Assembly (NCBI GenBank): GCA_000004695.1
Contig: CM000151.3
Span: 256,001 to 320,000 of the forward strand
From: Dictyostelium discoideum
Lineage: Eukaryota
Reading direction: 5' to 3'
Length of the DNA stretch: 64,000 bases
This document shows positions 23,448 to 51,621 of this stretch, in pieces. The notes beneath the pieces were generated by a model. It was not told the origin of the DNA and searched no databases. It saw only the letters and a list, made by a program, of their open reading frames with translations. How positions within the stretch are numbered: the stretch's first letter is position 1; each line of letters begins with the position of its first letter. The position numbers and the translations under genes were made by a program.

Positions 23448-25436
23448 ATGTCAACAAATAAAAAATTTAAAAAATATAATAATAAAATATTTCAAGATGT
23501 TATTGATTTTGAAATTTTAAGATCTATAATCAATTATTTATTAACCAGCAACACAAATAAAAAAAATAATAATAATAATTACAACACTAGTAATCAATAT
23601 AAAATTAATAAATTTTATTTAAATGGAAATGAAATATTAAATTATACATTAGTTTCAAAAAAGTGGTATAATTTTATATCATTAACAATATCAAATAATA
23701 TTATTAATAATAAATTATTTGAACATTGGTTAAAAATTAATTATAATAATAATAATAATTATAATATTATTAATAATAAATCATTTGATAATTGGTTAAA
23801 AATTTATAATAATAATAATAATAAATCATTTATTGAAAACTATAATAATCGAAATCAATATGATAAAAATAATTTATTTTTAAAAAGTGCTAAACAAAAT
23901 AAAATTAGCCAATTTAAAATTAGTTTCAATAAAGAGTTTTCAATTATAAAAATCAAAGAATCAATAATTAATGATTATTTTAAATTCAATTTATTTTTAG
24001 ATTATATTACAATTGATGATTTTAAAGAAATTAAAAAGAAATTTGAAAATAATCAATTACTTTATAATAGAATTGTAATTGATATTAATATTGGAAATGG
24101 TTATGATGATTATAGTTCAAACCAAAGTGATATTATATTTAAAATACATGAATATATATCAAATGAAAATTTAGAGACTATATCAAATTTATTTAAAATA
24201 TTAGAATTAAATTATGTTTATTTGGAAATTGGGGATTATATTCCAAAATCCCCTGAAAAGGGCAAAAGTAATAATAAGAAATGTACCGAAATGTATTTTA
24301 AAAGTTTATCAGTTGATGGTTTATATGAGAACGAAGAAACAGTAAAGATATTCAAAATTTTCAAAGGTAAAAATGTAATATTTCATGGTCCAACACATGC
24401 CGACTCACCATTATTTGACCCAGATAATTCAGGTCAACAAGTTGAATCATTTAAAGTACAAACTGATTTATTCGGATCTTTTGTTGAAGCACGTCATCTA
24501 ATCAAAAGTAATCAATTTGAAAATTTACATTCAATTTCAATAAAAATTAATTCATTTCAAATATTATCAAATATATCTGAAGAAATGGGATCTTATAGAT
24601 TCTATAATAATCATAATTATAAAAATGATCCACCAGATTCGAAAAATATGAAATCAGAATTAAATCAAATGATTAACTCATTCATTACAAGTAAATCTTT
24701 AAAGAATTTAAAAATAACAGCCAATAATACTACACACTATTCAATTGAATATGATGCTTGCTATATTGGAGGTGATCATGAAACTTTTGCAAATAAAATA
24801 AATGAAAATATAGAATCATATTCAAATTCATTTAAACCATTATTTTCAGAATTAAATACATCAATTGAAAGAATTGAATTAAATTGTTGTGGTTTATTAA
24901 ATATCAATACATTTTCAAATTTATTAAATAATAAATCAATTAAATATCTATATTTATACGGTGATAGTGATTTCATTGTTTACTCATCAAAACAAAATGG
25001 TGGTAATAGTGGTGGTGGTGATGGTGTATTACATAAAGAATCTATTTCAATTAATCAGTATTTATTTGATAATATATTTACATCACCATTAACATCAATT
25101 AGACATTATAGAATTAAATTCAAAGAATCAAATCAATTAAAATTAATATTTAATTTAATATTTAATAATATTTTTAAATTACAATTGTATTCATTAATAT
25201 TTAAAATTTATAAAAACGAATTAGTTGGTGAATTTGTTAAAGAATTTAAAAATTTAATAAATAATATTTCAACACAACAAGATCAACAACAAAAATTAAA
25301 TAACATATATTTAAAAGAAATTAAAATAAAAATTGAAGATGATAAATATATTCAAGAATTAAATAATATTAAAAATCCATATTTCACAACAGTAATAAAG
25401 AAATTACCAAAAAGGTTGTGTACACTTAAAAGATAA
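23448..25436 (+). CDS. Tandem-family paralogue (~663 aa from MSTNKKFKKYNNKIF)
   Basis: ORF 23349..25436. The paralogue-conserved ATG is at 23448, preceded by tcagctcactcttacaaataatt. All conserved blocks are present. Gly-rich cassette NGGNSGGGDGVLHKE. Confidence 0.8.
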   Translation: MSTNKKFKKYNNKIFQDVIDFEILRSIINYLLTSNTNKKNNNNNYNTSNQYKINKFYLNGNEILNYTLVSKKWYNFISLTISNNIINNKLFEHWLKINYNNNNNYNIINNKSFDNWLKIYNNNNNKSFIENYNNRNQYDKNNLFLKSAKQNKISQFKISFNKEFSIIKIKESIINDYFKFNLFLDYITIDDFKEIKKKFENNQLLYNRIVIDINIGNGYDDYSSNQSDIIFKIHEYISNENLETISNLFKILELNYVYLEIGDYIPKSPEKGKSNNKKCTEMYFKSLSVDGLYENEETVKIFKIFKGKNVIFHGPTHADSPLFDPDNSGQQVESFKVQTDLFGSFVEARHLIKSNQFENLHSISIKINSFQILSNISEEMGSYRFYNNHNYKNDPPDSKNMKSELNQMINSFITSKSLKNLKITANNTTHYSIEYDACYIGGDHETFANKINENIESYSNSFKPLFSELNTSIERIELNCCGLLNINTFSNLLNNKSIKYLYLYGDSDFIVYSSKQNGGNSGGGDGVLHKESISINQYLFDNIFTSPLTSIRHYRIKFKESNQLKLIFNLIFNNIFKLQLYSLIFKIYKNELVGEFVKEFKNLINNISTQQDQQQKLNNIYLKEIKIKIEDDKYIQELNNIKNPYFTTVIKKLPKRLCTLKR

Positions 25437-25454
25437 AAAATAAAACATCAAAAA

Positions 25455-25930
25455 AACTGGTGATTATGGTAGTGGTGGAAGTGGTAGTGGTAATAGTGGT
25501 GGTGATGGTGTATTACATAAAGAACCTATTTCAATTAATCAATATTTATTTGAAAATATATTTACATCTCAATAAACATCAATTAGACATTATAAAATTA
25601 AATTCAAAAATTCAAAACAATTAAAATTAATATTTAATTTAATATTAAATAATATTTTTAAATTACAATTATATTCATTAATATTTGAATTCTATGAAAA
25701 AGAATTAATTGGCGAATTTGATAAAGAATTTAAAAATTTAATAAATAATATTTCAACACAACAACAACAAAAATCAAATAACATAAATCTAAAAGAAATT
25801 AAAATTAAAATTAAAATTAAAATTAGACATAATGAATTAATTCAAAAATTAAATAATATTAATAATCCATATTTCAAAACAGTGATAAAGAAAATAGCTT
25901 TTAATGATGGTCGTGCACCGGAGAAAAAAA
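25455..25930 (+). pseudogene. 3'-terminal fragment duplicate of the family gene (segmental partial duplication) with an in-frame stop
   Basis: Encodes GDYGSGGSGSGNSGGDGVLHKEPISINQYLFENIFTSQ-stop-TSIRHYKIKFKNSKQLKLIFNLILNNIFKLQLYSLIFEF...NPYFKTVIKKIA. No 5' part is present. Confidence 0.7.
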
Positions 25931-26233
25931 CCTAAGAAATTTTACTATTTTGTGAGAAATTAAACTACCGCAAAAACTCATATTTTAAGAAACGATATTA
26001 TAATTTAATAAAATTTTTAACAAACTAATATCAATTTCTAATTAATAATTAATCACACTTTATTATTAAATTATCATAAAATAATAAAAGAATCTGGCCA
26101 TAATAAAAATATATTTTAATAAATTAAAAATTGATAAAATCTAATATTATTTAATTAAAATTACATTGGTCCATCAACTTCCATGCTGCATCATCAAACT
26201 GCTCCATAAACAACAATAAACAGCAACCAATCA

Positions 26234-26272
<39 letters not shown>

Positions 26273-26760
26273 GATTTAAATTTAGGAACAATTCACAAAA
26301 GTCATACTAATTATACCTTGTGATGTGAGGATTAAATTGAGTTTGTGCTTGAATTGATTGATCATGCAGAGTTTCTGAGCGGTTTGTCTGGTTGGTTCCA
26401 GATGTTCCAACACACCCTTTGATTTATATGTTGTTGATTTATATATTTGTTTGAGTGTGACACATTTGAAGGTTTAAAAAAAAAAAAAAAAAAAATTAAA
26501 AAAAAAAAAAATTTTTATTATTTATTTTTTTTAAACCATGACCAAATTTTTTTTTTTTTTTTTTTTTTGTGTTTATTTTAATAATTTATTTGTTTTTAAA
26601 TTTGTTTGAAATAGAAAAAGAATGAAACTTTAAAATTAAAAAAAAAATATGGAGATATTTGTGATGGTACCATTAAATTTCAAAAAAAAAAAAAAATTAA
26701 AAAAAATTTAAAAAAAAAAAATTGAAAAAATGAGCCATCCAAAATATCTGATTATTTTAT

Positions 26761-26802
<42 letters not shown>

Positions 26803-26858
26803 AAATTTAATTTTTTTTTTTAATTTTTTTATTAAAAAAAAAAAAAAAAAAAATCTAG

Positions 26859-26898
26859 CATTAGTCAGACTCACTCTTTATAATTTAGACTAATAATA
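26859..26898 (+). promoter_or_regulatory. Family-conserved upstream/5'-UTR motif (A)ACATTAGTCAGACTCACTCTTTATAATTTAAACAAATAATA immediately before the ATG
   Basis: Recurs at 29149-29189, 32432-32472, 38733-38764, 41635-41662, 23420-23447, 6826-6860 (pseudogene), 40795-40830 (orphan), 55540-55563, and inverted at 45917-45955. Degenerate versions at 1990-2016 and 4250-4279. Confidence 0.6.
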
Positions 26899-28827
26899 AT
26901 GTCAACAAATAAAAAAATAAAAACAGATAATAATAATAAAAAATTACAAGATATTATTGATTTTGAAATTTTAAAATCTATAATTAATTATTTATTAATC
27001 AACAAAAAAAATAATAATAATAATAATAATACTAGTAATCAATATAAAATTAATAAATTTTATTTTAATATAAATGAAATATTAAATTATATATTAGTTT
27101 CAAAAAAGTGGTATAATTTTATATCATTAACAATATCAAATAATATTATTAATAATAAATCATTTGAACATTGTTTAAAAATTAATTATAATAATAATAA
27201 TAAATCATTTATTGAAAATTATAATAATCAAAATCAATATGATAAAAATTATTTAATTTTTAAAAACAAAGATAATAACCAATATAAAATTAGTTTTAAT
27301 AAAGAGTTTACAATTATAAAAATCAAAGAATCAATAATTGAAGATTATTTTAAATTCAATTTATTTTTACATAAGTTTGAATTTGAAGATTTTAAAGAAA
27401 TTAAAAATAAATTTGAAAATAATCAATTACTTTATAATAGAATTGTAGTTAATGTTGATACTGATTATATGTGTGAAGATGATACTTTATTAAGAATACA
27501 GAAATATATATCAAATGAGAATCCAGAAATCATATCAAATTTATTTAAAATATTAGAATTAAATTTTGGTTTTTGGTTGGAAAATGGTTATCGTCCAGAT
27601 TCTGAAGAGGATGAGGAGGAGGGGGAGGATGATGATGATGATACTGATGATAAAGGTAATAAGAAATGTACCACTGAATTATATTTAAATAATATATCAA
27701 TTGATGGTTTTTGTATAGATGATGGTGAAGATAATGAAACAGTAAAGATATTCAAAATTTTAAAAGGTAGAAATTTAATTTATAGGGGATCTGATGTTGA
27801 AAGTGATAGTCCGACACATGTCAATTATTCAGCATTATTTGATCCAGACAATTCAGGCCAACAAGTTGAATCAATTAAAGTAAAAAATGAGTCTGATAAT
27901 GAAGAATTTGTTGAAGCACGTCATTTAATCAAAGTTCATCAATTTGAAAATTTACATTCAATTACAATACCAATTAATTCATTTCAAATATTATCAAACT
28001 TATCTGAAGAAATGGGATTTTATTCGTTATATCGTAATAATGCAGATTCAGGTAATTCAGAAAATATGAAATCAGAATTAAATCAAATGATCAATTCATT
28101 AATTACATGTAAATCTTTAAAGAATTTAAATTTATCATGTGCAAAATATATAAGCTTTAGTTTTGATGATTTTTCTCGTTTTGATCAAATTTTTGCTAAT
28201 CAAATAAATGAAACTATAGAATCATATTCAAATTCCTTTAAACCATTATTTTCAGAATTAAATACATCAATTGAAAGAATTGAATTTGATTGTATGGGTT
28301 TATTAAATATCAATACATTTTCAAATTTATTAAATAATAAATCAATTAAATATTTATATTTGTATGGTAATAGTGATTTCATTGTTTACTCATCAAAACA
28401 AACTGGTGATAATGGTGGTGGTGGTGATGATGATATTAATGAATTACATAAAGAACTTATTTCAACTAATCAATATTTATTTGATAATATATTTTCATCA
28501 CCATTAACATCAATTAGACATTATAAAATTAAATTCATAGAATCAAAACAAATAAAATTCATATTTAATTTAATATTAAATAATATTTTTAAATTACAAT
28601 TATATTCATTAATATTCGAATTCAATGAAAACGAAATAGTTGGTGAATTTGTTAAAGAGTATAAAGATTTAATAAATAATATTTCAACACAACAAAAACA
28701 AGAACAAAAATCAAATAACATAAATTTAAAAGAAATTAAAATTAAAATTAAAGATGATAAATATATTCAAGAATTAAATAATATTAATAATCCATATTTC
28801 TCAACAGTAATAAAGAAAATGGCTTGA
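26899..28827 (+). CDS. Tandem-family paralogue (642 aa)
   Basis: Intact ORF. Conserved blocks and upstream motif cattagtcagactcactctttataatttagactaataata at 26859-26898. Confidence 0.85.
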   Translation: MSTNKKIKTDNNNKKLQDIIDFEILKSIINYLLINKKNNNNNNNTSNQYKINKFYFNINEILNYILVSKKWYNFISLTISNNIINNKSFEHCLKINYNNNNKSFIENYNNQNQYDKNYLIFKNKDNNQYKISFNKEFTIIKIKESIIEDYFKFNLFLHKFEFEDFKEIKNKFENNQLLYNRIVVNVDTDYMCEDDTLLRIQKYISNENPEIISNLFKILELNFGFWLENGYRPDSEEDEEEGEDDDDDTDDKGNKKCTTELYLNNISIDGFCIDDGEDNETVKIFKILKGRNLIYRGSDVESDSPTHVNYSALFDPDNSGQQVESIKVKNESDNEEFVEARHLIKVHQFENLHSITIPINSFQILSNLSEEMGFYSLYRNNADSGNSENMKSELNQMINSLITCKSLKNLNLSCAKYISFSFDDFSRFDQIFANQINETIESYSNSFKPLFSELNTSIERIEFDCMGLLNINTFSNLLNNKSIKYLYLYGNSDFIVYSSKQTGDNGGGGDDDINELHKELISTNQYLFDNIFSSPLTSIRHYKIKFIESKQIKFIFNLILNNIFKLQLYSLIFEFNENEIVGEFVKEYKDLINNISTQQKQEQKSNNINLKEIKIKIKDDKYIQELNNINNPYFSTVIKKMA

Positions 28828-29189
28828 TTAAGGTTATTTATAAAAAAAAAAAAAAATAAAAAAAAAAATAAAAAAACTTATATTTTTTAAATTTATAATT
28901 TTTTTTTTTTTCATTTTATGTGGACCTATCTTTTTCCAAAAACTAATTATGTTTTTTTTTTTTTTTTAATACATTAACATAAATTTTTTTTTTTTTCACA
29001 CAATAACACACATTTTTTGAAATTAATTTTTGATATTTTTTTTTTTTTACCAAAAAAAAAAAATATTAAATTAAATTTTTTTTTTTTTTTATTTTTTTAT
29101 TTTAATACAGGTCAACCAATTGGCAAACTAAAAAAAAAAAAAAATTTAACATTAGTTAGACTCACTCTTAATAATTTTAATAAATAATA

Positions 29190-29297
29190 ATGTTAACAAA
29201 TAAACAAATAAAAACAGATAACAATAAAATATTTCAAGATATTATTGATTTTGAAATATTAAAATCAATAATCAATTATTTATTAATTAGCAAAAAT

Positions 29298-29345
<48 letters not shown>

Positions 29346-31112
29346 AGTAATCAATATAAAATTAGTAAATTTTATTTAAATAGAAATGAAATATTAAATT
29401 ATATATTAGTTTCAAAAAAGTGGTATAATTTTTTATCATTAACAATATCAAATAATTTTATTAATAATAAATCATTTGAACATTGGTTAAACATTGATAA
29501 AAATAATAATAAATCATTTATTGAAAATTATAATAATCAAAATCAATATGATAAAAATAATTTAATTTATAAAAACAAAGATAATAAACAAAATAAAATT
29601 AGTTATAATAAGGAATTTTCAATTATAAAAATCAAAGAATCAATAATCAATGATTATTTTAAATTCAATTTATTTTTAAATAGTATTACAGTTGATGAAT
29701 TTACAGAAATTAAAAATAAATTTGAAAATAATCAATTACTTTATAATAGAATTATAGTTAATCTAGAAACTAGTTATGATGCGGATGTTACTCTATTTAT
29801 AATACATGAATATCTCTCAAATGAAAACTCAGAAATCATATCAAATTTATTTAAAATATTAGAATTAAATTATAATTTTTTGTTGCCTGGAGGTAATAGT
29901 CCAAATTTAGAAGAGGAGGAGGATGATACTGATGATGAAGGTAATAATGAAGGTACTGAATTATATTTTAATAATTTATCAATTTCTAGTTATAATGAAA
30001 ATGTAGTTGAAGATAGAGAAACAGTAATGATATTTAAAATTTTTAAAGGCAAAAATTTAATTTATAAAAGATCTCAAGTTGATTATGATTATCCAACACA
30101 TATGAATTATTCAGAATTATTTGATCCAGATAATTCTGGTCAACAAGTTGAATCGATTAAAGTAATAATTGAAACTGATGGTAATGGAGAGTCTGTTGAA
30201 GCACGTCATTTAATCAAAGTTAATCAATTTGAAAATTTACATTCAATTACAATACCAATTTATTCATTTCAAATATTATCAAACTTATCTGAAGAAATAG
30301 GATTTTTTGTGTTCTATCGTAATAATGCAGAATTTGGTAATTCAGGTACTTCAGAAAATATGAAATCAGAATTAATTCAAATGATTAATTCATTCGTTAC
30401 AAGTAAATCTTTAAAGAATTTAAATATATCATCAGTAAATTCAAACTACTCAATTAGTTATAAAGATTATGCTAGTTATGATGGTGATCATGAAATTTTG
30501 GCTAATAATATAAATGAAAATATAGAATCATTTTCAAATTGTTTTAAACCATTATTTTCAGAATTAAATACATCAATTGAAAGAATTGGATTTGATTGTT
30601 GTGGTTTATTAAAAATCAATACATTTTCAAATTTATTAAATAATAAATCAATTAAATATTTATATTTAAATAATTGTGATTTCATTGTTCACTCACCAAA
30701 ACCAATTGATAGTGATTTACATAAAGAACCAATTTCAATTAATAAATATTTATTTGATAATATATTTTCATCACCATTAACATCAATTAGACATTATAAA
30801 ATTAATATCAAAAAATTGAAACAATTAAAATTCATATTTAATTTAATATTAAATAATATTTTTAAATTACAATTATATTCATTAATATTCGAATTCAGTC
30901 AAAACGAATTAATTGGTGAATTTTTTAAAGAACTTAAAAATTTAATAAATAATATTTCAACACAGCAACAACAACAACAACAACAACAAAAAATATCAAA
31001 TAACATAAATTTAAAAGAAATTAAAATTAAAATTAAAGATGATGAACACATTCAAGAATTAAATAATATTAATAATCCATATTTTGCAACAGTGATAAAG
31101 AAAATAGCTTGA
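29190..31112 (+). CDS. Tandem-family paralogue (640 aa). (AAT)n-encoded poly-N near the N-terminus; polyQ9 near the C-terminus.
   Basis: Intact ORF. Upstream motif aacattagttagactcactcttaataattttaataaataata. Confidence 0.85.
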
Positions 31113-31399
31113 TTATGGTTATGTTTATTAGAAAAAAAAACCAAAGTACTTAAATAGCTCAAAAACCAAACATTTCAGAAATTCTTATTTTAGAAAAAAA
31201 AAAAAATAAAAAAAAAAAAGAATAAAAAAAAAAATAAAAAAAAGGATATATGTATTTATAGATCTTAATTATACAAATAATAAAATTATCTTATTTTAAT
31301 ACCTATTTTTTTTTTGATAATCCGAAAAAAAAATAAGAGTTCTATTATTTTATTTTTTTTTTTTTTTTTTTTTTTTTTTAGTTTCGAGAAACTAAATGT

Positions 31400-32060
31400 G
31401 GAAGTGAATCTGTGTCTTCTTATTTAACGATTATTGATAAAGAGTGAGTACATGCATTTGAAGTTTTACCACCACCACCACTACTACTTGATTTACCTCC
31501 AGTAGTTAAAGTTTTACCACCACGGCCACTACTTGATTTACCGTCAGTAGTTGATGCTGAATGGAAAGTTGATGGATGTGGACCAGTAGTGGTTGATGAT
31601 GTAGTATGAGTAGTTGAAGATTGAATAGATACCAAATGATGAGAGTGCGCTATTAATTTGAACAATGTAATTGAAAACTACTAAAACAAAGTAAGTTGAA
31701 TCTCAGGTAAGTGGCATAATAGTTTGAACGTGGTGGTATTGTGTAAAGAAAATCGTTGACATAGTAACCTTTTTCTTTTCTTCTTTTTCTTCTTTTTCTT
31801 CTTTTTCTTTGGTGTACACAGGGTCATAGGTTCCCCGTCATTTTTTGAAAATGGGGCCTATCCCCTTAAAATAAAAAACTATATGCTAAAATTTATCTCT
31901 TTTTATATCCAATGTTGATTTAATATTATCTACGAAATGCTTATCTAACCAATAGATACCTGCTTTTTCATTTCTAATTGTACCAAGATTAAATTGAGTC
32001 AGTGAAATGTTTTGAATTGTACCTAATGAATCTTTATTATTATTATTATCTCTATTAAAA
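31400..32060 (-). repeat. Composite S/T-rich unit, copy 1. Minus-strand S/T/G-rich ORF 31420..31665, a conserved 5' module with ATGTCAACGAT... first-exon-like segment and GTAAGT motifs (31640-31770), (TTCTTC)n, then a ~200-bp module GGTGTACACAGGGTCATAGGTTCCCCGTCATTTTTTGAAAATGGGGCCTATCCCCTTAAAATAAAA... (31808-31990).
   Basis: The same multi-part unit recurs at 36745-37330, 37545-38220, 43510-43625 (truncated) and, inverted, at 63190-63490. Confidence 0.5.
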
Positions 32061-32164
32061 TAAAAATAAATTAAAAAAAAAAAATGAAAAAAAAAATGAA
32101 AAAAAAAAAAATGAAAAAAAAAAAAAATTAAAAAAAAAAGGGTTTTTTTTTTTTTTATTTTAAT

Positions 32165-32380
32165 TATTTTAAAGTAATTTCATTGTTTACTCATCAAAAC
32201 CTATTGATAATAGTAAAGGTCTTGGTGGTGGTGGTGGTGGTCGATTACATAAAGAACCTATTTTAATTTATTAATATTTATTTGATAATATTTTCATCAC
32301 CATTAACATCAATTAGATATTATAAAATTTAATATCTATAGTCCAAAACTATTAATAATCCATATTTCACAATAATATTA
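32165..32380 (+). pseudogene. Short degenerate 3' fragment of a family gene
   Basis: ...FIVYSSKPIDNSKGLGGGGGGRLHKEPILIY-stop..FDNIFITININ-stop-ILNNPYFTIIL. Frames are broken. Confidence 0.6.
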
Positions 32381-32431
32381 TGAAAAAATAAAAATTAATT
32401 ATTATCCAAAAAAAAAAAAAAAAAAAATTTA

Positions 32432-32472
32432 ACATTGGTCAAACCCACTCTTTATAATTTAAACAAATAATA
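32432..32472 (+). promoter_or_regulatory. Family-conserved upstream motif (aacattggtcaaacccactctttataatttaaacaaataata)
   Basis: Alignment across paralogues. Confidence 0.6.
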
Positions 32473-34452
32473 ATGTCAACAAGTAAAAAAATTAAAACAG
32501 ATAATAATAATAAAATATTTCAAGATGTTATTGATTTTGAAATTTTAAAATCTATTATCAATTATTTATTAATCAGTAAAAAAAATAATAAAAATAATAA
32601 TACTATTAATCAATATAAAATTAGTAAATTTTATTTAAATAGAAATGAAATATTAAATTATATATTAGTTTCAAAAAAGTGGTATAATTTTATATCATTA
32701 ACAATATCAAATAATATTATTAATAATAAATCATTTGAACATTGGTTAGAAATTAATTATAATAAAAATAAATCATTTACTGAAAATTATAATAATCAAA
32801 ATCAATATGATAAAAATAATTTAGTTTTTTATAGTAAAGATGATGGTGAATTCTATGTACATAAACATAATAATATTAGTTTTAATAAAGAGTTTTCAAT
32901 TATAAAAATCAAAGAATCAATAATCAATGATTATCTCAAAAACAATTTATTTTTAGATAAAATTACAATTGATGATTTTAAAGAAATTAAAAATAAATTT
33001 GAAAATAATCAATTACTTTATAATAGAATTGTAGTTAATTTTTGTCGTAATAATGATGATACACAAATGACAACATATAAATATGGTGAAGTTCATTATT
33101 TTAAAGATCAATATAAAATTTTATTTAAAATACATGAATATGTATCAAATGAAAATTCAGAAACCATATCAAATTTATTTAAAGTGTTAGAATTAAATCA
33201 TGATTTTGAGTTGGATAAAATTTATAATCCAAAATCTGAAAAGGATAATAAAGGTAATAAGAAACCTACTACTGAATTATATTTAAATAGTTTATCAATT
33301 GTTGGTTATGATTGGAGTAAAGATGAGGATGATGATGAAGAAACAGTAAAGATATTCAAAATTTTCAAAGGTAAGAATTTAATTTATGATGGTTCCGATA
33401 TTCAGCATGAAATTTCAACACATGTCAATTATTCAGCATTATTTGACCCAGATAACTCAGGTCAACAAGTTGAATCAATTAAAGTAAAAAGTGAACGTGG
33501 TAATGATGAGTATGTCGAAGCACGTCATTTAATTAAAATTAATCAATTTGAAAATTTACATTCAATTACAATACCAATTAATTCATTTCAAATATTATCA
33601 AACTTATCCGATGATAAAATGGTATTTTATCAGTTTCATAGATATGATACAGATCCAGACAATTCAGATAATATGAAATCAGAATTAAATCAAATGATCA
33701 ATTCACTCATCACATGTAAATCTTTAAAGAATTTAAAAATACTATGTGTAAATTCAAAAAACTATTCAATTGATTTTGAAAGATTGGTTGGTGGTGATAA
33801 AGTTTCGCCTTATGAAATAAATAAAACTATAGAATCATTTTCAAATTCATTTAAACCATTATTTTCAGAATTAAATTCATCAATTGAAAGAATTGAATTT
33901 GATTGTATGGGTTTATTAAATATCAATACATTTTCAAATTTATTAAATAATAAATCAATTAAATATTTATATTTATATGATGATAGTGATTTCTTTGTTT
34001 ACTCTTCAAAAGCAAGTGATAATGGTGGTGGTAATGAATTACATAAAGAACCTATTTCAATTAATCAATATTTACTTGAGAATATTTTTTCATCACCATT
34101 AACATCAATCAGGCATTATAGAATTTGTTTCAGAGAATCAAAACAATTAAAATTCATATTTAATTTAATATTAAATAATATTTTTAAATTACATTTATAT
34201 TCATTAATATTTGAATTCTGTGAAAACGAAATAGTTGGTGAATTTGTTAAAGAATATAAAAATTTAATAAATAATATTTCAACACAACAACAACAACAAG
34301 AAGAACAACAAAAATCAAACAACATCAATTTAAAAGAAATTAAAATTAAAATTATAACTCCATTTGAATATGAAGAATATATTCAAGAATTGAATAATAT
34401 TAATAATCCATATTTCGCAACAGTAATAAAGAAAATAATTACTGATTGTTAG
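32473..34452 (+). CDS. Tandem-family paralogue (659 aa)
   Basis: Intact ORF. Upstream motif aacattggtcaaacccactctttataatttaaacaaataata (32432-32472). Confidence 0.85.
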   Translation: MSTSKKIKTDNNNKIFQDVIDFEILKSIINYLLISKKNNKNNNTINQYKISKFYLNRNEILNYILVSKKWYNFISLTISNNIINNKSFEHWLEINYNKNKSFTENYNNQNQYDKNNLVFYSKDDGEFYVHKHNNISFNKEFSIIKIKESIINDYLKNNLFLDKITIDDFKEIKNKFENNQLLYNRIVVNFCRNNDDTQMTTYKYGEVHYFKDQYKILFKIHEYVSNENSETISNLFKVLELNHDFELDKIYNPKSEKDNKGNKKPTTELYLNSLSIVGYDWSKDEDDDEETVKIFKIFKGKNLIYDGSDIQHEISTHVNYSALFDPDNSGQQVESIKVKSERGNDEYVEARHLIKINQFENLHSITIPINSFQILSNLSDDKMVFYQFHRYDTDPDNSDNMKSELNQMINSLITCKSLKNLKILCVNSKNYSIDFERLVGGDKVSPYEINKTIESFSNSFKPLFSELNSSIERIEFDCMGLLNINTFSNLLNNKSIKYLYLYDDSDFFVYSSKASDNGGGNELHKEPISINQYLLENIFSSPLTSIRHYRICFRESKQLKFIFNLILNNIFKLHLYSLIFEFCENEIVGEFVKEYKNLINNISTQQQQQEEQQKSNNINLKEIKIKIITPFEYEEYIQELNNINNPYFATVIKKIITDC

Positions 34453-35214
34453 AAAATAAAAAATAAAAAATAAAAAAAAAAACAAAAAAAAATATTTCTA
34501 ATATTAATACATGTATGCATAGAGTTTTTATTCTAACATTCAATTTTTGTTTTTGGCGAAGTGTTAAATTAAAATACTTATAGGCTATCTCTTTGATGAA
34601 AGGAATTGTTATCCTTCTCTTGCCAAGTTTGTTTTAATTATAATACTATTGGAATGTGAAGATAGTGATAAATTATTATATGGTAGCAGTGATTTTGGAA
34701 TATGGAGATGATGGTGATAATAAAGATTTTTGGTTGAAAAAGATGGTGAAACTTTGTGAAGTTGTTGATAGATCTTTTAAACCTAAACTTTGCATATTGG
34801 AATAGCTGATGTTATTGAACAAAATACATTACCTCTAAAACCAAATAATTATGTTTGAACCACCAAATAAACTAGTTCCAAAGCTTGAAATTGTAAATAA
34901 TAGACCACCAATTGGTTGAGTTGAATCACATAGAAATCCACCATAGTAGTTGTTGATTGATGAGCCATGAGTAAATTGGTAGATGCCAATTCGAAGATGC
35001 TCCACTAGGTGATTATTGTATTGAAGCGAACAATTCCCAAGTGATACATATCAAGCAGTTAATACATCATCAGATTCACCATTCTCTTCAGACAATTCAA
35101 TTGTTAAATCATGTTTCAGGAACATTAGATTATCAAAACTTAGGTTTATCAACATTCTATGAAATTGGTACCATTGTTTGGATTGATTCAAATAACAATG
35201 ATAAATTCGAACAA

Positions 35215-35400
35215 CCACGTGATTGTCCCATGCCAAAATTATCATATTAATTTCAGCAGCCATATTAATTTTGGCATGGGACTTATGTCTGCCAAAATTA
35301 CCGTATTAATTTCAGCATGTACATAGCAGCCAAAATTAATAAGGTAATTTTGGCATAGAAAAAAAAAAAAGTCAAAGTCATTTAATTAATAATCATCTCA
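35215..35400. repeat. MITE-like palindromic repeat, partial copy (hairpin core CCCATGCCAAAATTATCATATTAATTTCAGCAGCCATATTAATTTTGGCATGGGAC)
   Basis: Same family as 35960-36420, 43680-43885, 47440-47580 and 51690-52150. Confidence 0.6.
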
Positions 35401-35884
35401 AATATAAACAAAATTTTAGTACTAAAATTATTATTATTATTTTTATTATAATAATTATAATAAAAAAAAAAAAAAAAAAATTTCATATTATTTTATTTAT
35501 ATCTTTTATTTATTTTTATCTTTTTATTTTTATTATTAATTTTATAATTTATTTTCATTTCTTTTTTTTAGTTGATGTATATTTTTTTATTATTCATTTA
35601 TGTCTACGTTCTAATAAAAAAAATATACACAAAAAAAAAAAAAATTAAAAATAAAAAAAAAAATAAATTGAAGGCACTCATATACTGTCTTCCCAAATAA
35701 CATGTTTTTCAATGTTTTTATACAAATCAGAATTATTTTAAAATAAATTTATGGGATTCTTTTTTTTGTTAATCAAGCAAAATAACGCAGGTATCTCAAT
35801 CAGTCACTTTTCTAAATATTAATTTTTTATTATTAAATCATTATATAATTAAATTAATTAAAATAATTAAAAAAAAAATAAAAA

Positions 35885-35920
<36 letters not shown>

Positions 35921-35959
35921 GAATGAAATGGAATAAAATAAATTAAAAAAAAGAAATAC

Positions 35960-36420
35960 AGAAATTAAAGAAACTTATTTCGAAATTGTTTAAACAATCA
36001 TACAGTTTAAAATTAAATAAATTGTTTTAAACCACCACTTTTTTTGAACACATGAAAATAAATAAGAAATAAAAATAAAAAGATAAAAAAAGATTTGTTT
36101 TTATTTTTTTTTATTTTATAATTATTCTTGTCGTCAGTATTGTTACTATTAATTAATCCCATGAGTTTTTTATTATTATTATTTTTAATTCTTTTATATT
36201 TGAGATGATTATTATTAATTAAATGACTTTGAGTTTTTTTTTTTATTTTTCTATGCCCAAAATTACCATATTAATTTCAGCCTAAAATAGGTGGTCTGTG
36301 CATGCCAAAATTAATATGGCTGCTGAAATTAATATGGTAATTCTAGCAGACATAAGTCCCATGCCAAAATTATCATATTAATTTCAGCAGCCATATTAAT
36401 TTTGGCATGGGACACGTGAT
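35960..36420. repeat. MITE-like palindromic repeat, full copy (~460 bp): conserved arm ...ttataattattcttgtcgtcagtattgttactattaattaatcccatgag...atttgagatgattattattaattaaatgactttgag... followed by a nested long hairpin of CCATGCCAAAATTA.CATATTAATTTCAGC units
   Basis: Near-identical to 51690-52150. Non-coding and strongly self-complementary. Confidence 0.65.
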
Positions 36421-36744
36421 ATCGGAAAATCACATGCATCAATTACATTAACCAACAATGGCAATGGTGAAACATCAACAATTCCAACAGATGTTGATGG
36501 AGCAGTAGTGGTTGATGATTACAAATTTTTATCCGTTAATTGTGGTTATAAAGTGTTTTTAATTTCAAATATTATATATAAAAAAAATAAAATTTTAAAA
36601 AAAACCAATTTGTAAAATACATTATAAAAAACAAATAATAATTATGTAACTATATGTAAAATAAACTTTTCAAATAAATAATATTAAAAATTATAGAAAG
36701 AAATTTTTAAGTTATCAATTTTCATTATTTTTTTTTTTACTGAA

Positions 36745-38764: not shown

Positions 38765-40618
38765 ATGTCAACAAATAAAAAAATAAAAACAGATAATAAT
38801 AATAAAATATTTCAAGATATTATTGATTTTGAAATTTTAAAATCTATAATCGATTATTTATTAACCAGCAAAAAAAATAAAAATAATAATAATATTAATA
38901 ATAATCAATATATAATTAAAAAATTTTATTTATATAGAGATGAAATATTAAATTATATATTAGTTTCAAAAAAGTGGTATAATTTTATATCATTTACAAT
39001 ATCAAATAATATTATTAATAATAAACTATTTGAACATTGGTTAAAAACTAATTTTAGTAATAATTCATTTATTGAAAATTATAATAATCAAAATCAATAT
39101 GATAAAAATAATTTAATTTATAATAACATAGAAGATAAACAATATAAAATTAGTTTTAATAAAGAATTTTCAATTATAAAAATCAAAGAATCAATAATCA
39201 ATGATTATTTTAAATTCAATTTATTTTTAGATCATTTTACGATTGACGATGATTTTAAAGAAATTAAAAATAAATTTGAAAAAAATCAATTACTTTATCA
39301 TAGAATTGTAGTTAGTGTTGATACTGATAATTATGGGTTTCCTAGTGATATTTTATTTACAATACATGAATATGTATCAAATGAAAATTCAGAAATCATA
39401 TCAAATTTATTTAAAATATTAGAATTAAATTTTGATTTTTGGTTGGATTACGGATATTGTCCACGTTCTGAAGAGGAGGATGATGAAGGTAATAAAAAAT
39501 GTAGAGAAATATATTTAAATAATTTATCAATTGCTGGTTATAATAGAGAAGTAGGTGAAGATGAAGAAACATTAAAGATATTCAAAATTTTCAAAAGTAA
39601 AAATATAATTTATGATGGATCCAATATTGATGAAAGTGATACTCCAACACATATCGATTATTCAACATTATTCGATCCAGATAATTCAGGTCAACAAGTT
39701 GAATCAATTAAAGTAAAAAATGAATATGGTAATGAAGCACGTCATTTAATCAAACTTAATCAATTTAAAAATTTACATTCAATTACAATACCAATTAATT
39801 CATTTCAAATATTATCAAACTTATCTGAAGAAATGGGATTTTGTAAGTTATATCGTACGATATATTCAGGTGATTCAGATAATATGAAATCAGAATTAAA
39901 TCAAATGATTAATTCATTCATTACAAATAAATCTTTAAAGTATTTAAATATATCATCTGTAAATTCAATATACACTCTTCCAATTAAAAATTATGATGGA
40001 GGTTATCATGAAATTTTTTTTAATAAAATAAATAAAACTATAGAATCATATTCAAATTCATTTAAACCATTATTTTCAGAATTAAATACATCGATTGAAA
40101 GAATTGAATTTGATTGTATGGGTTTATTAAATAATAAATCAATTAAATATTTATATTTATATGATAGTGATTTCATTGTTTATTCATCAAAACAAAAAGG
40201 TAATGTTAGTGGTATTCGATTACATAAAGAACATATTTCAATTAATCAATATTTATTTGATAATATATTTTCATCACCATTAACATCAATTAGACATTAT
40301 AAAATTAAATTCATAGAATTAAATCAAATCAAATTCTTATTTAATTTAATATTAAATAATATTTTTAAATTACAATTATATTCATTAATATTTGAATTCA
40401 ATGATAGCGAATTAATTGGTGAATTTGTTAAAGAATTTAAAAACTTAATAAATAATATTTCAACACAAGAACAACAAAAATCAAATAACATAAATTTAAA
40501 AGAAATTAAGATTAAAATTCAAGATGTTAATATTGATAAATATATTCAAGAATTAAATAATATTAACAATCCATATTTTACAACAATAATAAAGAAAAAA
40601 GCTAATAATGATGATTAA
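38765..40618 (+). CDS. Tandem-family paralogue (617 aa)
   Basis: Intact ORF. Upstream motif tatcagacactctttataatttaaacaaataata (38733-38764). Confidence 0.85.
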   Translation: MSTNKKIKTDNNNKIFQDIIDFEILKSIIDYLLTSKKNKNNNNINNNQYIIKKFYLYRDEILNYILVSKKWYNFISFTISNNIINNKLFEHWLKTNFSNNSFIENYNNQNQYDKNNLIYNNIEDKQYKISFNKEFSIIKIKESIINDYFKFNLFLDHFTIDDDFKEIKNKFEKNQLLYHRIVVSVDTDNYGFPSDILFTIHEYVSNENSEIISNLFKILELNFDFWLDYGYCPRSEEEDDEGNKKCREIYLNNLSIAGYNREVGEDEETLKIFKIFKSKNIIYDGSNIDESDTPTHIDYSTLFDPDNSGQQVESIKVKNEYGNEARHLIKLNQFKNLHSITIPINSFQILSNLSEEMGFCKLYRTIYSGDSDNMKSELNQMINSFITNKSLKYLNISSVNSIYTLPIKNYDGGYHEIFFNKINKTIESYSNSFKPLFSELNTSIERIEFDCMGLLNNKSIKYLYLYDSDFIVYSSKQKGNVSGIRLHKEHISINQYLFDNIFSSPLTSIRHYKIKFIELNQIKFLFNLILNNIFKLQLYSLIFEFNDSELIGEFVKEFKNLINNISTQEQQKSNNINLKEIKIKIQDVNIDKYIQELNNINNPYFTTIIKKKANNDD

Positions 40619-40794
40619 AAAAAATTATCTATATCTAAATTATTCATTTTTCATCCAACTATTTATTTTTTTTTTATTTTTTTTTTTTCAAGTTTTATTT
40701 GGATAAAATTAAATAAAATATTTTTTTTATTTATTTTTTTTTTTTTAGTTTCAAACTGTCACACCTGAATAAAAAAAATAAATGAAAAAACCCT

Positions 40795-40870
40795 CCCTCT
40801 TTATAATTTTTACAAATAATAATAATATCAACAAATTAAACAGACAATTATAATTTACAAAAAAAAAAAA
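40795..40870 (+). pseudogene. Orphan 5' remnant of a family gene (promoter motif plus first codons, ATG lost)
   Basis: ccctccctctttataatttttacaaataataataatATCAACAAATTAAACAGACAATTATAATTTACA with no downstream ORF. Confidence 0.55.
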
Positions 40871-41223
40871 AAAAAAAAAAAAAAATGGAAAAAAGAAAAC
40901 ATTTTTTTTTTTTAATTATTTCTAATTATTTTTAGAATTTAAACACTTTTATACACCTTATTATATTTTAAAATTTAAATTATTTAAAATGAGTGAATTA
41001 GGGGCAAAAAACGAAAAAAAAAAAAGAATTTCTTGCATAAAAAATATCTTTCTCAAATTTTTTTTTTTTTTTTTTATTTTATTTCATTTTTATTTTTATT
41101 TTATTTTTTATTTTATTTCATTTTATTTTTTTTTCCCAAAAAAAACCTTGTTTGAACCAAACAAATACTGTAACACACAAAAAAAAAAAATTGTAAACAT
41201 CTTTAATGGGTGCGACCATAAAT

Positions 41224-41272
<49 letters not shown>

Positions 41273-41662
41273 TTTGGGACAGTATTTGTTCGTTTCACAA
41301 AAAAAACAATTGAAAAAATCTTTCATGGCACTAAAAAAAGATTTTTAAAAAAAAAAAAAATGGATAAAATTTTAAAAAAACGATATCCATTTTGAATAAT
41401 TTAAAAAAAAAATAGGATGTATAAAGATAATCAAAAAAGAAACTTTTTATCCAAAAATGGATAAAGGTAAAATACTAAAAATTAAAATATATATATTAAA
41501 AAAAAAAATTAAATATATTTTTTTTATATATTTATTTTTTTTTTTTTTTTTTTTTTTTCTAAAAATTTAACAAAATAAACATTTTTTCAAAAAAAAAAAA
41601 AAAAAAAAAAAAAAAATTACCTCATTATTCTCGCGCACTCTTTATAATTTAAAAAAATAATA

Positions 41663-43516
41663 ATGTCAACAAATAAAAAAATAAAAACAGATAATAATAA
41701 AAAAATATTTCAAGATATTATTGATTTTGAAATTTTAAGATCAATAATTAATTATTTATTAATCAGCAAAAAAAATAAAAATAATAATAATAATACTAGT
41801 AATCAATATAAAATTAATAAATTTTATTTAAATAGAGATGAAATATTAAATTATATATTAGTTTCAAAAAAGTGGTATAATTTTATATCATTAACAATAT
41901 CAAATAGTATTATTAATAATAAATTATTTGAACATTGGTTAAAAATTAATTATAATAATAAATCATTTATTGAAAATTTTAATAATCAAAATCAATATGA
42001 TAAAAATAATTTAATTTCTAAAAACAAAAAATATAAACAAAATAAAATTAGTTTTAATAAAGAGTTTTCAATTATAAAAATCAAAGAATCAATAATCAAT
42101 GATTATTTTAAATTCAATTTTTTTTTAGATTATATTACAATTGATGATTTTAAAGAAATTAAAAATAAATTTGAAAATAATCAATTACTTTATAATAGAA
42201 TTGTAGTTAATGGTAGTTATGAAGGGGAAGTTTTATTTGGAATACATGAATATTTATCAAATGAAAATTCAGGAGTTATTTTAAATTTATTTAAAATATT
42301 AGAATTAAATCATGCTTTTAATTTATATTATAAACCAAAATCTGAAGAGAAGGATGAGGAGGATGGTCATGATGATAAAGGTAATAAGAAATGTACTGAA
42401 ATATATTTAAATAGTTTATCAGTTTTTGGTTTTGATGAAGGTGAGGGTGAAGTTCAAACATTAAAGATATTCAAAGTTTTCAAAGGTAAAAATTTAGTTT
42501 ATGATGGATCTGAAGAAGATCCTGATTTTCAAACACATATCAATTACTCTGCATTATTTGATCCAGATAGCTCAGGTCAACAAGTTGAATCGATTCAAGT
42601 ACAAAATAAATATGATAATGAAGAGTCAGTCGAAGCACGTCATTTAATCAAAGTTAATCAATTTAAAAATTTACATTCAATTATAATACCAATTAATTCA
42701 TTTCAAATATTATCAAACTTATCTAAAGAAATGGGATTTATTAGTTCCCATGGTTATGAAGAATATTCAGGAAATTCAGAAAATATGAAATCAGAATTAA
42801 ATCAAATGATCAATTCAATCGTTACAAGTAAATCTTTAAAGAATTTAAAAATAACATCTGTAAATTCAATATATTATCCAATTGATTACAAAGCTTTTTA
42901 TGATGGTGATCTTGAAACCCTTACTAATAAAGTAAATGAAACTATAGAATCATTTTCAAATTCATTTAAACCATTATTTTCAGAATTAAATACATCAATT
43001 GAAAGAATTGAATTTGATTGTATGGGTTTATTAAATATCAATACATTTTCAAATTTATTAAATAATAAATCAATTAAATATTTATATTTATATAATAGTG
43101 ATTTCATTGTTTTTTCACCTAAAAAAAGAGGTGGTCCATTTCATAGAGAACCTATTTCAATTAATCAATATTTATTTGATAATATATTTTCATCACCATT
43201 AACATCAATTAGACATTATAAAATTAAATTCATAAAATCAAATGAATTAAAATTCATATTTAATTTAATATTAAATAATATTTTTAAATTACAATTATAT
43301 TCATTAATATTTGAATTCAATGAAAACGAATTAATTGGTGAATTTTTTAAAGAATATAAAAATTTAAAAAATAATATTTCAACACAACAACAAAAATCAA
43401 ATAACATAAATTTAAAAGAAATTAAAATTAAAATTAAAGATGATGAATATATTCAAGAATTAAATAATATTAATATTCCATATTTCACCACAACATTAAT
43501 AAAGAAAATAACCTAA
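41663..43516 (+). CDS. Tandem-family paralogue (617 aa)
   Basis: Intact ORF. Upstream motif cgcgcactctttataatttaaaaaaataata (41635-41662). Confidence 0.85.
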   Translation: MSTNKKIKTDNNKKIFQDIIDFEILRSIINYLLISKKNKNNNNNTSNQYKINKFYLNRDEILNYILVSKKWYNFISLTISNSIINNKLFEHWLKINYNNKSFIENFNNQNQYDKNNLISKNKKYKQNKISFNKEFSIIKIKESIINDYFKFNFFLDYITIDDFKEIKNKFENNQLLYNRIVVNGSYEGEVLFGIHEYLSNENSGVILNLFKILELNHAFNLYYKPKSEEKDEEDGHDDKGNKKCTEIYLNSLSVFGFDEGEGEVQTLKIFKVFKGKNLVYDGSEEDPDFQTHINYSALFDPDSSGQQVESIQVQNKYDNEESVEARHLIKVNQFKNLHSIIIPINSFQILSNLSKEMGFISSHGYEEYSGNSENMKSELNQMINSIVTSKSLKNLKITSVNSIYYPIDYKAFYDGDLETLTNKVNETIESFSNSFKPLFSELNTSIERIEFDCMGLLNINTFSNLLNNKSIKYLYLYNSDFIVFSPKKRGGPFHREPISINQYLFDNIFSSPLTSIRHYKIKFIKSNELKFIFNLILNNIFKLQLYSLIFEFNENELIGEFFKEYKNLKNNISTQQQKSNNINLKEIKIKIKDDEYIQELNNINIPYFTTTLIKKIT

Positions 43517-43625
43517 AATTTAGGTGGTGTAATAGTTGAACGTGATGACATCGTGTAAAGGGGATCGTTGGCATAATAACCTACTAAATTTGGTGAACAC
43601 AGGATCATAGGTTTACTATAAACAA
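43510..43625 (-). repeat. Truncated composite S/T unit (5' module ATGCCAACGATCCCCTTTACACGATGTCATCACGTTCAAC... plus the start of the GGTGAACACAGGATCATAGG module)
   Basis: Alignment to 31700-31830 and 37250-37570. Confidence 0.45.
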
Positions 43626-43679
43626 ACATATAAAGAAATAAAAGATAAAAATAAAATGATATAAGATTTTTTTTTTTTT

Positions 43680-43885
43680 TTTTTTTTTTATTATTATTAT
43701 TATTGTAATAAAAAAAAAATAATAATTTTAGTACTAAAATTTTTTTAGTAATTTTAGTAACAGTTAATTAATCCCATGAGTTTCTATTTGTTTATATTTG
43801 AGATGATTATTAATTAAATGACTTTGACTTTTTTCTTTTTTCTATGCCAAAATTACCATATTAATTTCAGCATATACATAGCTGC
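43680..43885. repeat. MITE-like palindromic repeat, partial copy
   Basis: ...agtaacagttaattaatcccatgagtttctatttgtttatatttgagatgattattaattaaatgactttgac...ctatgccaaaattaccatattaatttcagc. Confidence 0.55.
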
Positions 43886-43936
43886 CAATGTGGTGTTCAA
43901 TTCATTCTAGATAATTTAAATAGTAACTATTATTAA

Positions 43937-44050
43937 CTATTTCTTTATTACTGTTGTGAAATATGGAATATTAATATTATTTATTTCTTGAATATATTCA
44001 TTATCATTAGTTTCAATTTTAATTTCTTTTAAAGTAATGTTATTTGATTT

Positions 44051-44126
<76 letters not shown>

Positions 44127-45916
44127 ATTGAAATATTATTTATTAAATTTTTAAATTCTTTAACAAAATCACAAACTAATTCGTTTTTATTGAATTCAAA
44201 TATTAATGAATATAATTGTAATTTAAAAATATTATTTAATATTAAATTAAATATGAATTTTAATTGATTTAATTCATTCAATTTAATTTTATAATGTCTA
44301 ATTGATGTTAATGGTGATGAAAATATATTATCAAATAAATATTGATTAATTGAAATAGGTTCTTGATGTAATTCATTACCGCTATAACTTGGTTTTGAAG
44401 AGTAAACAATGAAATCACTACCATATAAATATAAATATTTAATTGATTTATTATTTAATAAATTTGAAAATGTATTGATATTTAATAAACCACAACAATC
44501 AAATTCAATTCTTTCAATTGATGTATTTAATTCTGAAAATAATGGTTTAAATGAATTTGAAAATGATTCTATAGTTTCGTTTATTTTATTAGCAAAAATT
44601 TCATGATCAGCTCCCTTACAATCACGATAATATAAACCTTCATAATCAATTGGAGAATATTTTGAACTTACTGATGAGATATTTAAATTCTTTAAAGATT
44701 TACTTGTAATAAATGAATTGATCATTTGATTTAATTCTGTATTAATATTTTCAGAGTTACCCGATTCTGATTTACTATTATAAAATCTAATAAATCCCAT
44801 ATCCTCAGATAAGTTTGATAATATTTGAAAAGAGCTAATTGGTATTGTAATTGAATGTAAATTTTCAAATTGATTAACTTTGGCTAAATGGAGAGGTTCA
44901 ACAAATTCATCATTATCAGGTTCAATTTGTACTTTAATTGATTCAACTTGTTGACCTGAATTATCTGGATCAAATAATGCTGAATAATTGACATGTGTAG
45001 GCATATCACTACAAGTATCAGATCCATCATAAAATATATTTCTACCTTTGAAAATTTTGAATATCTTTACTGTTTCTTCATCATTACCTACTTCTCCATC
45101 AAAACCTGCAATTGATAAATTATTTAAATATAATTCAGTACATTTCTTACCACCTTTATCAGTATCATGATCACCTTCCTCCTCTTCAGAGTTTGGGCTA
45201 TAACCATTATCCAAACAAAAATCAATATTTAATTCTAATATTTTAAATAATTTTGATATGACTTCTGAATTTTCATTTGATACATATTCATGTATTCTAA
45301 ATAAAGTTGTTTTATTATTATTACTATCATAATCAGCATCAACATTAACTACAATTCTATTATAAAGTAATTGATTATTTTCAAATTTATTTTTAATTTC
45401 TTTAAAATCATCAATTGTAATCTTATATAAAAATAAATTGATTTTAAAATAATCATTGATTATTGATTCTTTGATTTTTATAATTGAAAACTCTTTATTA
45501 AAACTAATTTTATTTTGTTGATAATTATAATCTTCATCTTTAAAAATTAAATTATTTTTATCATATTGATTTTGATTATTATAATTTTCAATAAATGATT
45601 TATTTTTATTATTATAATTAATTTTTAACCAATGTTCAAATAATTTATTATCAATAATATTATTTGATATTGTTAATGATATAAAATTATACCACTTTTT
45701 TGAAACTAATATATAATTTAATATTTCATTTCTATAAAAATAAAATTTATTAATTTTATATATATTAATAGTATTATTATTTAAATTATTATTTTTATTT
45801 TTATTTTTTTTGCTAGTTAATAAATAGTTGATTATAGATTTTAAAATTTCAAAATCAATAATATCTTGAAATATTTTATTGTTATTATTTGTTTTTATTT
45901 TTTTACTTGTTGACAT
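43937..45916 (-). CDS. Tandem-family paralogue (659 aa), the only inverted member. (CAA)n-encoded polyQ of ~37 residues.
   Basis: Intact ORF on the minus strand. Family upstream motif in reverse at 45917-45955 (...cattattatttgttaacatgatatgttaagagtgagtttg). Confidence 0.85.
44051..44126 (-). repeat. (CAA)n trinucleotide microsatellite encoding polyQ (shown as (TTG)n on the plus strand)
   Basis: Direct read. The homologous polyQ in other paralogues ranges from 3 to 12 Q. Confidence 0.9.
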
Positions 45917-46771: not shown

Positions 46772-46946
46772 AAAAAAAAAAGAAGTTTTGTCAAAATACT
46801 CTCCATTAGTTTTTTCAAAAAAAAAAAAATGCACATTTTTTTTAAAAAAAATTACAGTAACAATAAATTACTATAAGCTGCTCGTAATATTTTACGAGGG
46901 CAGCACCAAAAAAAAAGTCCAGTAACTTTTACACTAAAAAAAAAAG

Positions 46947-47115
46947 ATTGATGGTATTAAAATTTATTCAGTCATAGACACCACATTATTTAATATTCAA
47001 AAACCAACTGATTTTCAAGATGTTTATTATTCACCAAAACACAAAAAACATGGCATCAAATTGGAAGTTGTATGCAACGTTTCAGATGGAAAAATCATTT
47101 GGGTATCAAATGGTG

Positions 47116-47183
<68 letters not shown>

Positions 47184-47319
47184 AAGAAACTAATTTTTTT
47201 TTTTAATTTTAGAATTTTATGGTGGGTCTGAACACGATATTACTATTTCAAGACATTCAGGTTTGGTTGATGGTGAATTTAATTTAGAGGAAGATGAAAA
47301 AATTTTGGCTTTCTATTAA
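46947..47319 (+). pseudogene. Harbinger/PIF-type (DDE_Tnp_4) transposase C-terminal fragment in two exons (46947..47112, 47213..47319); the intron contains an A73 tract; the N-terminal catalytic part is absent
   Basis: KIDGIKIYSVIDTTLFNIQKPTDFQDVYYSPKHKKHGIKLEVVCNVSDGKIIWVSN|EFYGGSEHDITISRHSGLVDGEFNLEEDEKILAFY-stop. This matches the DDE_Tnp_4 core ...aiDGThipi..P....yYs.Kh+.hsl.vqvvcd.dgrii.v..g.pGsvhD... Upstream in-frame TAA at 46935, with no further exon before the Myb-like gene. Confidence 0.55.
47116..47180 (+). repeat. Uninterrupted poly(A) tract (~65 nt) inside the intron of the transposase fragment
   Basis: Direct read. Confidence 0.9.
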
Positions 47320-47439
47320 TTAATAGAAACACTTTATCGATTATAAATAAAAATATTAAAATAACTAAAGATAAAAATGAAAATTTATAAAAAAAATTTA
47401 AATAATCATAAATAAAAGATAAAAATAAAAAGATATAAA

Positions 47440-47444
47440 AAAGA

Positions 47445-47475
<31 letters not shown>

Positions 47476-51620: not shown

Positions 51621-51621
<1 letters not shown>

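Follow-up and report, generated by a model that had tools for sequence, protein, structure and literature searches.

The highly self-complementary repeats in the window (the whole 64-kb stretch of DNA that was analysed) most probably represent four insertions of thug-S, a described DNA transposon of Dictyostelium discoideum (Glöckner et al., 2001, as cited in PMC5633606, PMC6161686 and PMC4894637). On the same reading, to which we give a probability of about 0.92, thug-S, itself non-autonomous, derives by internal deletion from a 3.0-kb element that encodes an rve-type transposase, and its hairpin ends give rise to miRNA-like RNAs. Elements of the thug group account for ~0.1% of the genome (PMC5633606).

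Repeats in the window

The G+C content of the window is ~20%, and four sites match the 30-nt core of the hairpin unit at ≤3 mismatches, versus 0 expected (100 shuffles). Comparison of the window with itself by blastn recovered all five intervals of the original prediction, which had described five non-coding copies of a palindromic, MITE-like repeat of ~450 bp, and confirmed where these repeats lie: 35973-36415 matches 51693-52152 over ~460 bp at 94% identity, 47408-47585 matches the inner part of this arm at 84%, 43787-43888 corresponds to the other arm, and 35225-35415 pairs in inverted orientation with 36187-36413. The count of five has to be lowered to four insertions, since a single 1,191-bp element has 35215-35400 as one end and 35960-36420 as the other; likewise, the ~450 bp taken for a common unit is no more than the left arm of an element of 1,975 bp. 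Mapped with a 1,975-bp thug-S copy as the reference (L002:4068-6042), the features are as follows.

34975-36552, plus strand: interrupted host ORF-like sequence; 34975-35223 and 36421-36552, when joined, give 127 aa in one frame
35218-35223, unstranded: left copy of the target-site duplication (TSD), CGTGAT; the identical hexamer lies at 36415-36420, just outside TGTCCC...GGGACA, a geometry found in five other complete copies
35224-36414, minus strand: internally deleted, non-autonomous thug-S of 1,191 bp (blastn versus L002:4068-6042)
36414 to 35973, minus strand: left arm of the 1,191-bp copy, thug-S positions 1-466, 92% identity
35667 to 35224, minus strand: right arm of the 1,191-bp copy, thug-S positions 1508-1975, 90% identity
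35668-35972: AT-rich filler of 305 bp in the 1,191-bp copy, without thug homology
36415-36420, unstranded: right copy of the TSD, CGTGAT
36301-36409, unstranded: near-perfect hairpin of 109 nt in the left terminal inverted repeat, containing the mir-7131 match at 36311-36399
43624-43884, plus strand: old fragment of the thug-S right arm, positions ~1654-1868, 83-92% identity, ending inside the hairpin cluster
47408-47580, minus strand: old fragment of the thug-S left arm, positions 189-382, 83% identity, without terminal hairpins
50787-52151, minus strand: 3′-truncated thug-S of 1.37 kb, positions 1-1351, 97.7% identity, with the ORF remnant DDB_G0271194
52038-52146, unstranded: 109-nt hairpin of the copy at 50787-52151, containing the mir-7131 match at 52048-52136

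The complete copy at 35224-36414 is surrounded by a perfect 6-bp duplication, CGTGAT, in keeping with the transposon origin that had been proposed. When the element and one TSD are removed, the ORF at 34975-36552 becomes continuous again, and a weak Pfam GEVED/SdrD_B match (E ~1e-3) spans the junction of the rejoined ORF. A word-index homologue search found no homologues of the reconstituted 127-aa ORF, and therefore yielded no independent empty site for the window copy. For the filler at 35668-35972, no match was obtained with thug-S or with the autonomous core. This copy has the terminal inverted repeats and TSD of a MITE and is free of transposase sequence; in size and homogeneity it departs from one, as it measures 1,191 bp and the 1,975-bp unit of its family retains transposase remnants. 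The term MITE-like thus suits one window copy, a non-autonomous internal-deletion derivative with a clean TSD, and does not extend to a distinct 450-bp MITE or foldback family.

Two other attributes of the predicted family apply to some of the pieces. The 1,191-bp copy is indeed without any ORF sequence, but the copy at 51690-52150 continues leftward to 50787 into an annotated ORF and hence is not non-coding. Nested hairpin ends, expected in all copies, are found at 36301-36409 and 52038-52146; they are partial in the 43.8-kb fragment and missing from the 47.4-kb fragment. The latter, at 47408-47580, lies just downstream of a truncated DDE_Tnp_4 relic (46938-47316). We considered that these two fragments could be the halves of one element split by an inversion, and rejected this because each of them is truncated at either side and one inversion would not explain their orientations.

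Identity with thug-S

Judged by sequence comparison, the window repeats belong to thug-S as copies or fragments; the name rests on gene annotations and the miRNA literature. ORFs of the window, which comes from chromosome 2, match D. discoideum DDB_G0271412, DDB_G0271414, DDB_G0271424 and DDB_G0271194 exactly, and are present also in the isolate assembly GCA_054883475.1. DDB_G0271194 is the ORF at 50767-51204 (minus strand), which lies ~500 bp away from the 51.7-kb repeat; it shares a 90%-identity cluster with DDB_G0271154, annotated as 'thugS element' (PMC12405889), and identity between the window pieces and the 1,975-bp unit that surrounds the 'thugS element' ORFs is 83-98%. The window thus agrees with the known element in organism, multicopy nature, ORF cluster, matching small RNAs and mir-7131. 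It differs in that no copy is intact, one being internally deleted and one truncated, with two fragments besides.

Other loci were fetched through thug-S ORF proteins, and the D. discoideum isolate assemblies GCA_054883475.1 and GCA_054859355.1 were used in the analysis. The 1,975-bp unit is found at 97-99% identity in four copies (L002:4068-6042, L003:4081-6035, L004:4061-6040 and L005:3038-5038); it starts with TGTCCCATGCC and finishes with GGCATGGGACA. Its terminal inverted repeats of ~210-245 bp, TGTCCC...GGGACA, consist of nested palindromes. Eleven copies of the 11-mer AATTAATATGG (≤1 mismatch) all lie within 170 bp of the thug-S ends in alternating orientation, which makes each end internally palindromic. 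All six complete copies, that of the window included, have TGTCCC...GGGACA termini and a perfect 6-bp TSD, namely GTTGCA, TATAAC, ATTAAC and TATAGT for the four copies of the 1,975-bp unit, AATAAG for an element at L007 and CGTGAT for the window copy. Copies occur on at least four contigs besides that of the window.

The thug-S reading frame carries two frameshifts, and by itself its conceptual ORF matches nothing in Pfam or the PDB. Its homologues are solely from D. discoideum and D. cf. discoideum, and in two of them the N-terminus continues in frame into an rve core. This core came to light only via the full-length relative. Two public gene models of the family are transposon chimeras: DDB_G0270824 (P0011) combines the thug-S ORF and a Tdd-4 integrase in one fused model, and DDB_G0290953 (P0015) begins with MAAEINMVILAWD, which is a translated thug-S terminal hairpin.

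An autonomous partner with an rve transposase

The genome of the same strain contains an intact rve transposase ORF within thug-S-type ends. The element concerned (L007:7074-16922) has the ends of thug-S and the TSD AATAAG, and holds two nested insertions, each with its own ends and TSD: one of 759 bp (CACAG...CTGTG, TSD TC) and a Tdd-4 copy (TSD GATGA). Without them, the element measures 3,014 bp and encodes one intact ORF of 591 aa; the autonomous copy is accordingly a reconstruction from this single locus, interrupted by the two nested elements. The 591-aa ORF scores 59.8 bits with Pfam rve (cut-off 32.6) and also matches rve_3. Its best NCBIfam profiles are IS481 (83 bits) and then IS3 (59 bits), and its best solved structures are foamy-virus integrases. 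A profile search of the ORF with Integrase_H2C2, the H2C2 zinc finger, gave no match.

thug-S equals the 3,014-bp element without nt 1192-2202 (~1 kb), and for this reason retains residues 1-160 and 498-591 of the transposase and loses the entire catalytic core. When 1.84 billion representative proteins were searched with HMMER, close relatives of the thug transposase were found in Dictyostelium only, followed by generic rve domains at ~30% identity. Another strain has an autonomous relative, 79% identical (L008), the right end of which is absent from the fetched DNA. We also considered whether the 1,772 extra bp make the L007 element Tdd-5, given that its total, ~3.78 kb, is the length published for Tdd-5. 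This was rejected on two grounds: the supplement of the Ginger paper shows a Tdd-5 protein that resembles Tdd-4 and not the thug ORF, and 759 bp of the additional DNA form a distinct nested element, which has repeats and a 2-bp TSD of its own.

Alternative explanations

An independent ~450-bp MITE or foldback family, in which each arm is a separate mobile unit, would account for the ~460 bp shared at 94% identity by the arms at 36 and 52 kb and for their extensive palindromic ends. No unit of 450 bp, however, is bounded by a pair of ends or a TSD that belongs to it alone. The 51.7-kb arm runs 900 bp further into the thug-S ORF at 97.7% identity, the 35.2- and 36.4-kb arms lie inside a single TSD and leave one reading frame when both are removed, and full-length copies elsewhere measure 1,975 bp, all of which make such a family very improbable. 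Still less credit is due to local segmental duplication during expansion of the tandem gene array, that is, without transposition, which had been named as the finding that would overturn the prediction. Four pieces do lie within 17 kb of a tandem gene family, three of them in one orientation, but their flanks are unrelated to one another. Moreover, near-identical copies occur on other contigs or chromosomes, each with a different 6-bp TSD, and the ORFs of the family are annotated on four different AX4 records.

The neighbourhood itself suggests derivation from another superfamily, either a nearby Tc1/mariner (DDT-type) or PIF/Harbinger element or Tdd-4/Tdd-5. Harbinger-type relics adjoin two of the pieces (DDE_Tnp_4 at 46938-47316, E = 7e-13, and an HTH_Tnp_4-like sequence at 52576-52788), and the Tdd-4 element at 55693-61055, likewise with an rve transposase and TGT... 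ends, belongs to a family repeatedly found beside thug-S. Yet the TSDs are of 6 bp and variable, in contrast to TA or TWA, which excludes Tc1/mariner and PIF/Harbinger, respectively. Tdd-4 in the same DNA has 5-bp TSDs (TTGTT, GATGA) and ends, TGTTGTAGGG..., that begin with TGTTG and share just TGT with thug-S; the thug core is 28-30% identical to that of Tdd-4, is clearly unlike the Tdd-5 sequence in the alignment of the Ginger paper, and lacks an H2C2 match. Both Harbinger-type relics are truncated pseudogenes outside the thug element ends, and a Harbinger parent is excluded by the 6-bp TSD and by ends that enclose an rve gene. The idea that the hairpin ends match those of an autonomous element proved right in that the same ends enclose an rve ORF elsewhere, and wrong as to a Tc1/mariner DDT-type parent. 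Overall, we consider parentage in any of these other superfamilies very unlikely, and favour thug-S as the core-deletion derivative of the 3.0-kb rve element.

Superfamily placement

The thug element belongs among the integrase-type DNA transposons and is distinct from Tdd-4 and Tdd-5. Ginger2/Tdd elements have an H2C2 finger, TGTNR termini and TSDs of 4-5 bp (PMC2836005). Tdd-4 and Tdd-5 resemble thug in being integrase-like cut-and-paste elements with long terminal inverted repeats and TGT... ends that occupy the same genome and are often adjacent, whereas they differ in their H2C2 finger, 5-bp TSD, unrelated repeats and other transposase. In the thug terminus, TGTCC, the fifth base is not a purine, and TGTNR is therefore not matched.

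In its features, thug is closest to IS3EU/GingerRoot, a resemblance drawn from family descriptions and not a statement of membership. Those elements lack HHCC, usually have a 6-bp TSD, and end in TA..TA or occasionally TG..CA (PMC10045372, PMC6839031). Similarly, thug combines an rve-type DDE transposase without HHCC, a 6-bp TSD, terminal inverted repeats of at least 100 bp and TG..CA termini, with IS481 and IS3 as the best bacterial profiles; the difference is that most IS3EU/GingerRoot ends are TA..TA, TG..CA being the minority form in GingerRoot. It is possible, although we regard the proposal as a whole as doubtful, that thug represents a Dictyostelium-restricted, HHCC-less, cut-and-paste rve lineage with 6-bp TSDs, which would make it the first IS3EU/GingerRoot-like element known from Amoebozoa, or else a new sister group there, with thug-S as its core-deletion derivative and mir-7131 coming from its putative transposase-binding 11-mer arrays. 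According to a 2017 review, no transposase of a Dictyostelium DNA transposon resembles known ones, and the IS3EU/GingerRoot-like classification of thug may therefore be unpublished; entries for thug-T or in Repbase may already cover it, and may also record the link between thug-S and an rve transposon with a 6-bp TSD.

Hairpins and small RNAs

High self-complementarity, another property attributed to these repeats, is evident in their predicted folds. The 109-nt hairpin at 36301-36409 folds at -66 to -70 kcal/mol (z = -14 to -16) and that at 52038-52146 at -68 to -77 kcal/mol (z = -17 to -19). A scan of the 64 kb with Rfam at gathering thresholds returned four matches only, all to mir-7131 (RF03716; gathering score 74): 36311-36399 scored 94-96 bits and 52048-52136 96-99 bits, each on both strands.

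Published work had attributed small RNAs to thug-S, namely miRNA_can_D3-3p, AUUAAUUUCGGCAGCCAUAUU, and miRNA_can_D3-5p, UAUGGCUGCUGAAAUUAAUGUGG (PMC4894637, Table 2), which bears out the expectation that the hairpins are a source of small RNAs; thug is absent from the supplements of that paper. Both miRNA_can_D3-5p and -3p have six sites each in the window at 1-2 mismatches, against 0 expected, and the hairpin at 36301-36409 is among them. Transcripts of the thug terminal repeats are processed to small RNAs in an RbdB-dependent manner (PMC4894637), and D. discoideum miRNAs generally depend on the Dicer-like protein DrnB (PMC6161686). The thug-S transposon and the mir-7131 precursor are thus both already known.

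MITE-derived miRNAs that originate from terminal inverted repeats have examples in plants and animals. thug-S resembles these in the sequence from transposon end to long perfect hairpin to paired ~21-nt small RNAs, and differs in that its hairpin matches are on both strands. A single thug-S terminal repeat is internally palindromic, and one element end is consequently enough for a hairpin.

Genomic neighbourhood

The region is a transposon cluster comprising the four thug-S pieces, two Harbinger relics, and Tdd-4 with two nested 760-bp elements. It is interspersed with a tandem array that has one inverted member (2017-6361, 23349-34452, 38765-45916 and 53490-55472), made up of intron-poor paralogues of 617-727 aa in the DDB_G0271412 family, for which no Pfam domain was found. 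The repeats had been placed at array breakpoints and thought able to promote rearrangements. Only the 43.8-kb fragment adjoins the inversion junction, a 400-bp gap between the 3′ ends of two convergent paralogues that is the sole intergenic space there; no thug sequence lies near the other edge of the inverted paralogue. That thug-S pieces promoted rearrangements of the array is possible but unsupported, the one argument for it being their adjacency.

The Tdd-4-type element at 55693-61055 has terminal inverted repeats of ~243 bp (TGTTGTAGGG...CCCTACAACA) and the TSD TTGTT, and is ~97-98% identical to the copies at L002 and L007; solo fragments like the Tdd-4 repeat are found at 19299-19592 and ~17203-17364. 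A ~760-bp element with inverted ends CACAGCAAAGAAAAA...TTTTTCTTTGCTGTG occurs in the window at 58124-58871 and 59690-60456, at L007 9149-9907 and in at least three more places, with 2-bp TSDs (AT, TC, TT, TA), repeatedly nested in Tdd-4 and thug copies; L002 shows an empty site close to 10390. The element may correspond to a short transposon already known from Dictyostelium, for example DDT-S.

The Harbinger-type relic at 46938-47316 (plus strand; DDE_Tnp_4) is degenerate and has a poly(A)-rich intron. That at 52152-52790 (minus strand) shows a weak HTH_Tnp_4 match followed by degenerate frames that, by eye, resemble the first-D and HD motifs; a word-index protein search found no relatives of the Harbinger relic peptide. 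Finally, at 49425-49550, AT-rich intergenic DNA contains a G+C-rich inverted repeat of ~33 bp (ATGACTACATAACCCCTGTAAGCGG...CCGCTTACAGGGGTTACGTAGTCAT) with a loop of ~60 nt, folding at -59 to -65 kcal/mol (z = -9 to -11); Rfam gave no match for it, and none of the eight fetched loci contains it.

Proposed mechanism and significance

We infer that a transposase supplied in trans would mobilise thug-S and the 1,191-bp copy. It would bind the subterminal arrays of the 11-mer as putative binding sites, cut at the TG/CA ends and integrate the element through a 6-bp staggered cut, and thug-S may be active at present. Transcribed terminal repeats would fold into hairpins with ~48-bp stems, from which ~21-nt miRNA-like RNAs (mir-7131/miRNA_can_D3) would be produced, with the RbdB dependence of the published work.

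Because a catalogued transposon and a catalogued miRNA precursor have been re-identified here, little changes in that respect; the feature is real and ordinary. For the window, the analysis clarifies that two 'copies' are one element, that a 'non-coding' copy has an annotated ORF, and that several gene models of the family are transposon chimeras. For the family, thug-S gains a concrete autonomous partner and a mechanism class, that of an rve-type transposase with TG...CA ends and a 6-bp duplication, together with a testable account of how an internally palindromic DNA-transposon end may give rise to a miRNA precursor.
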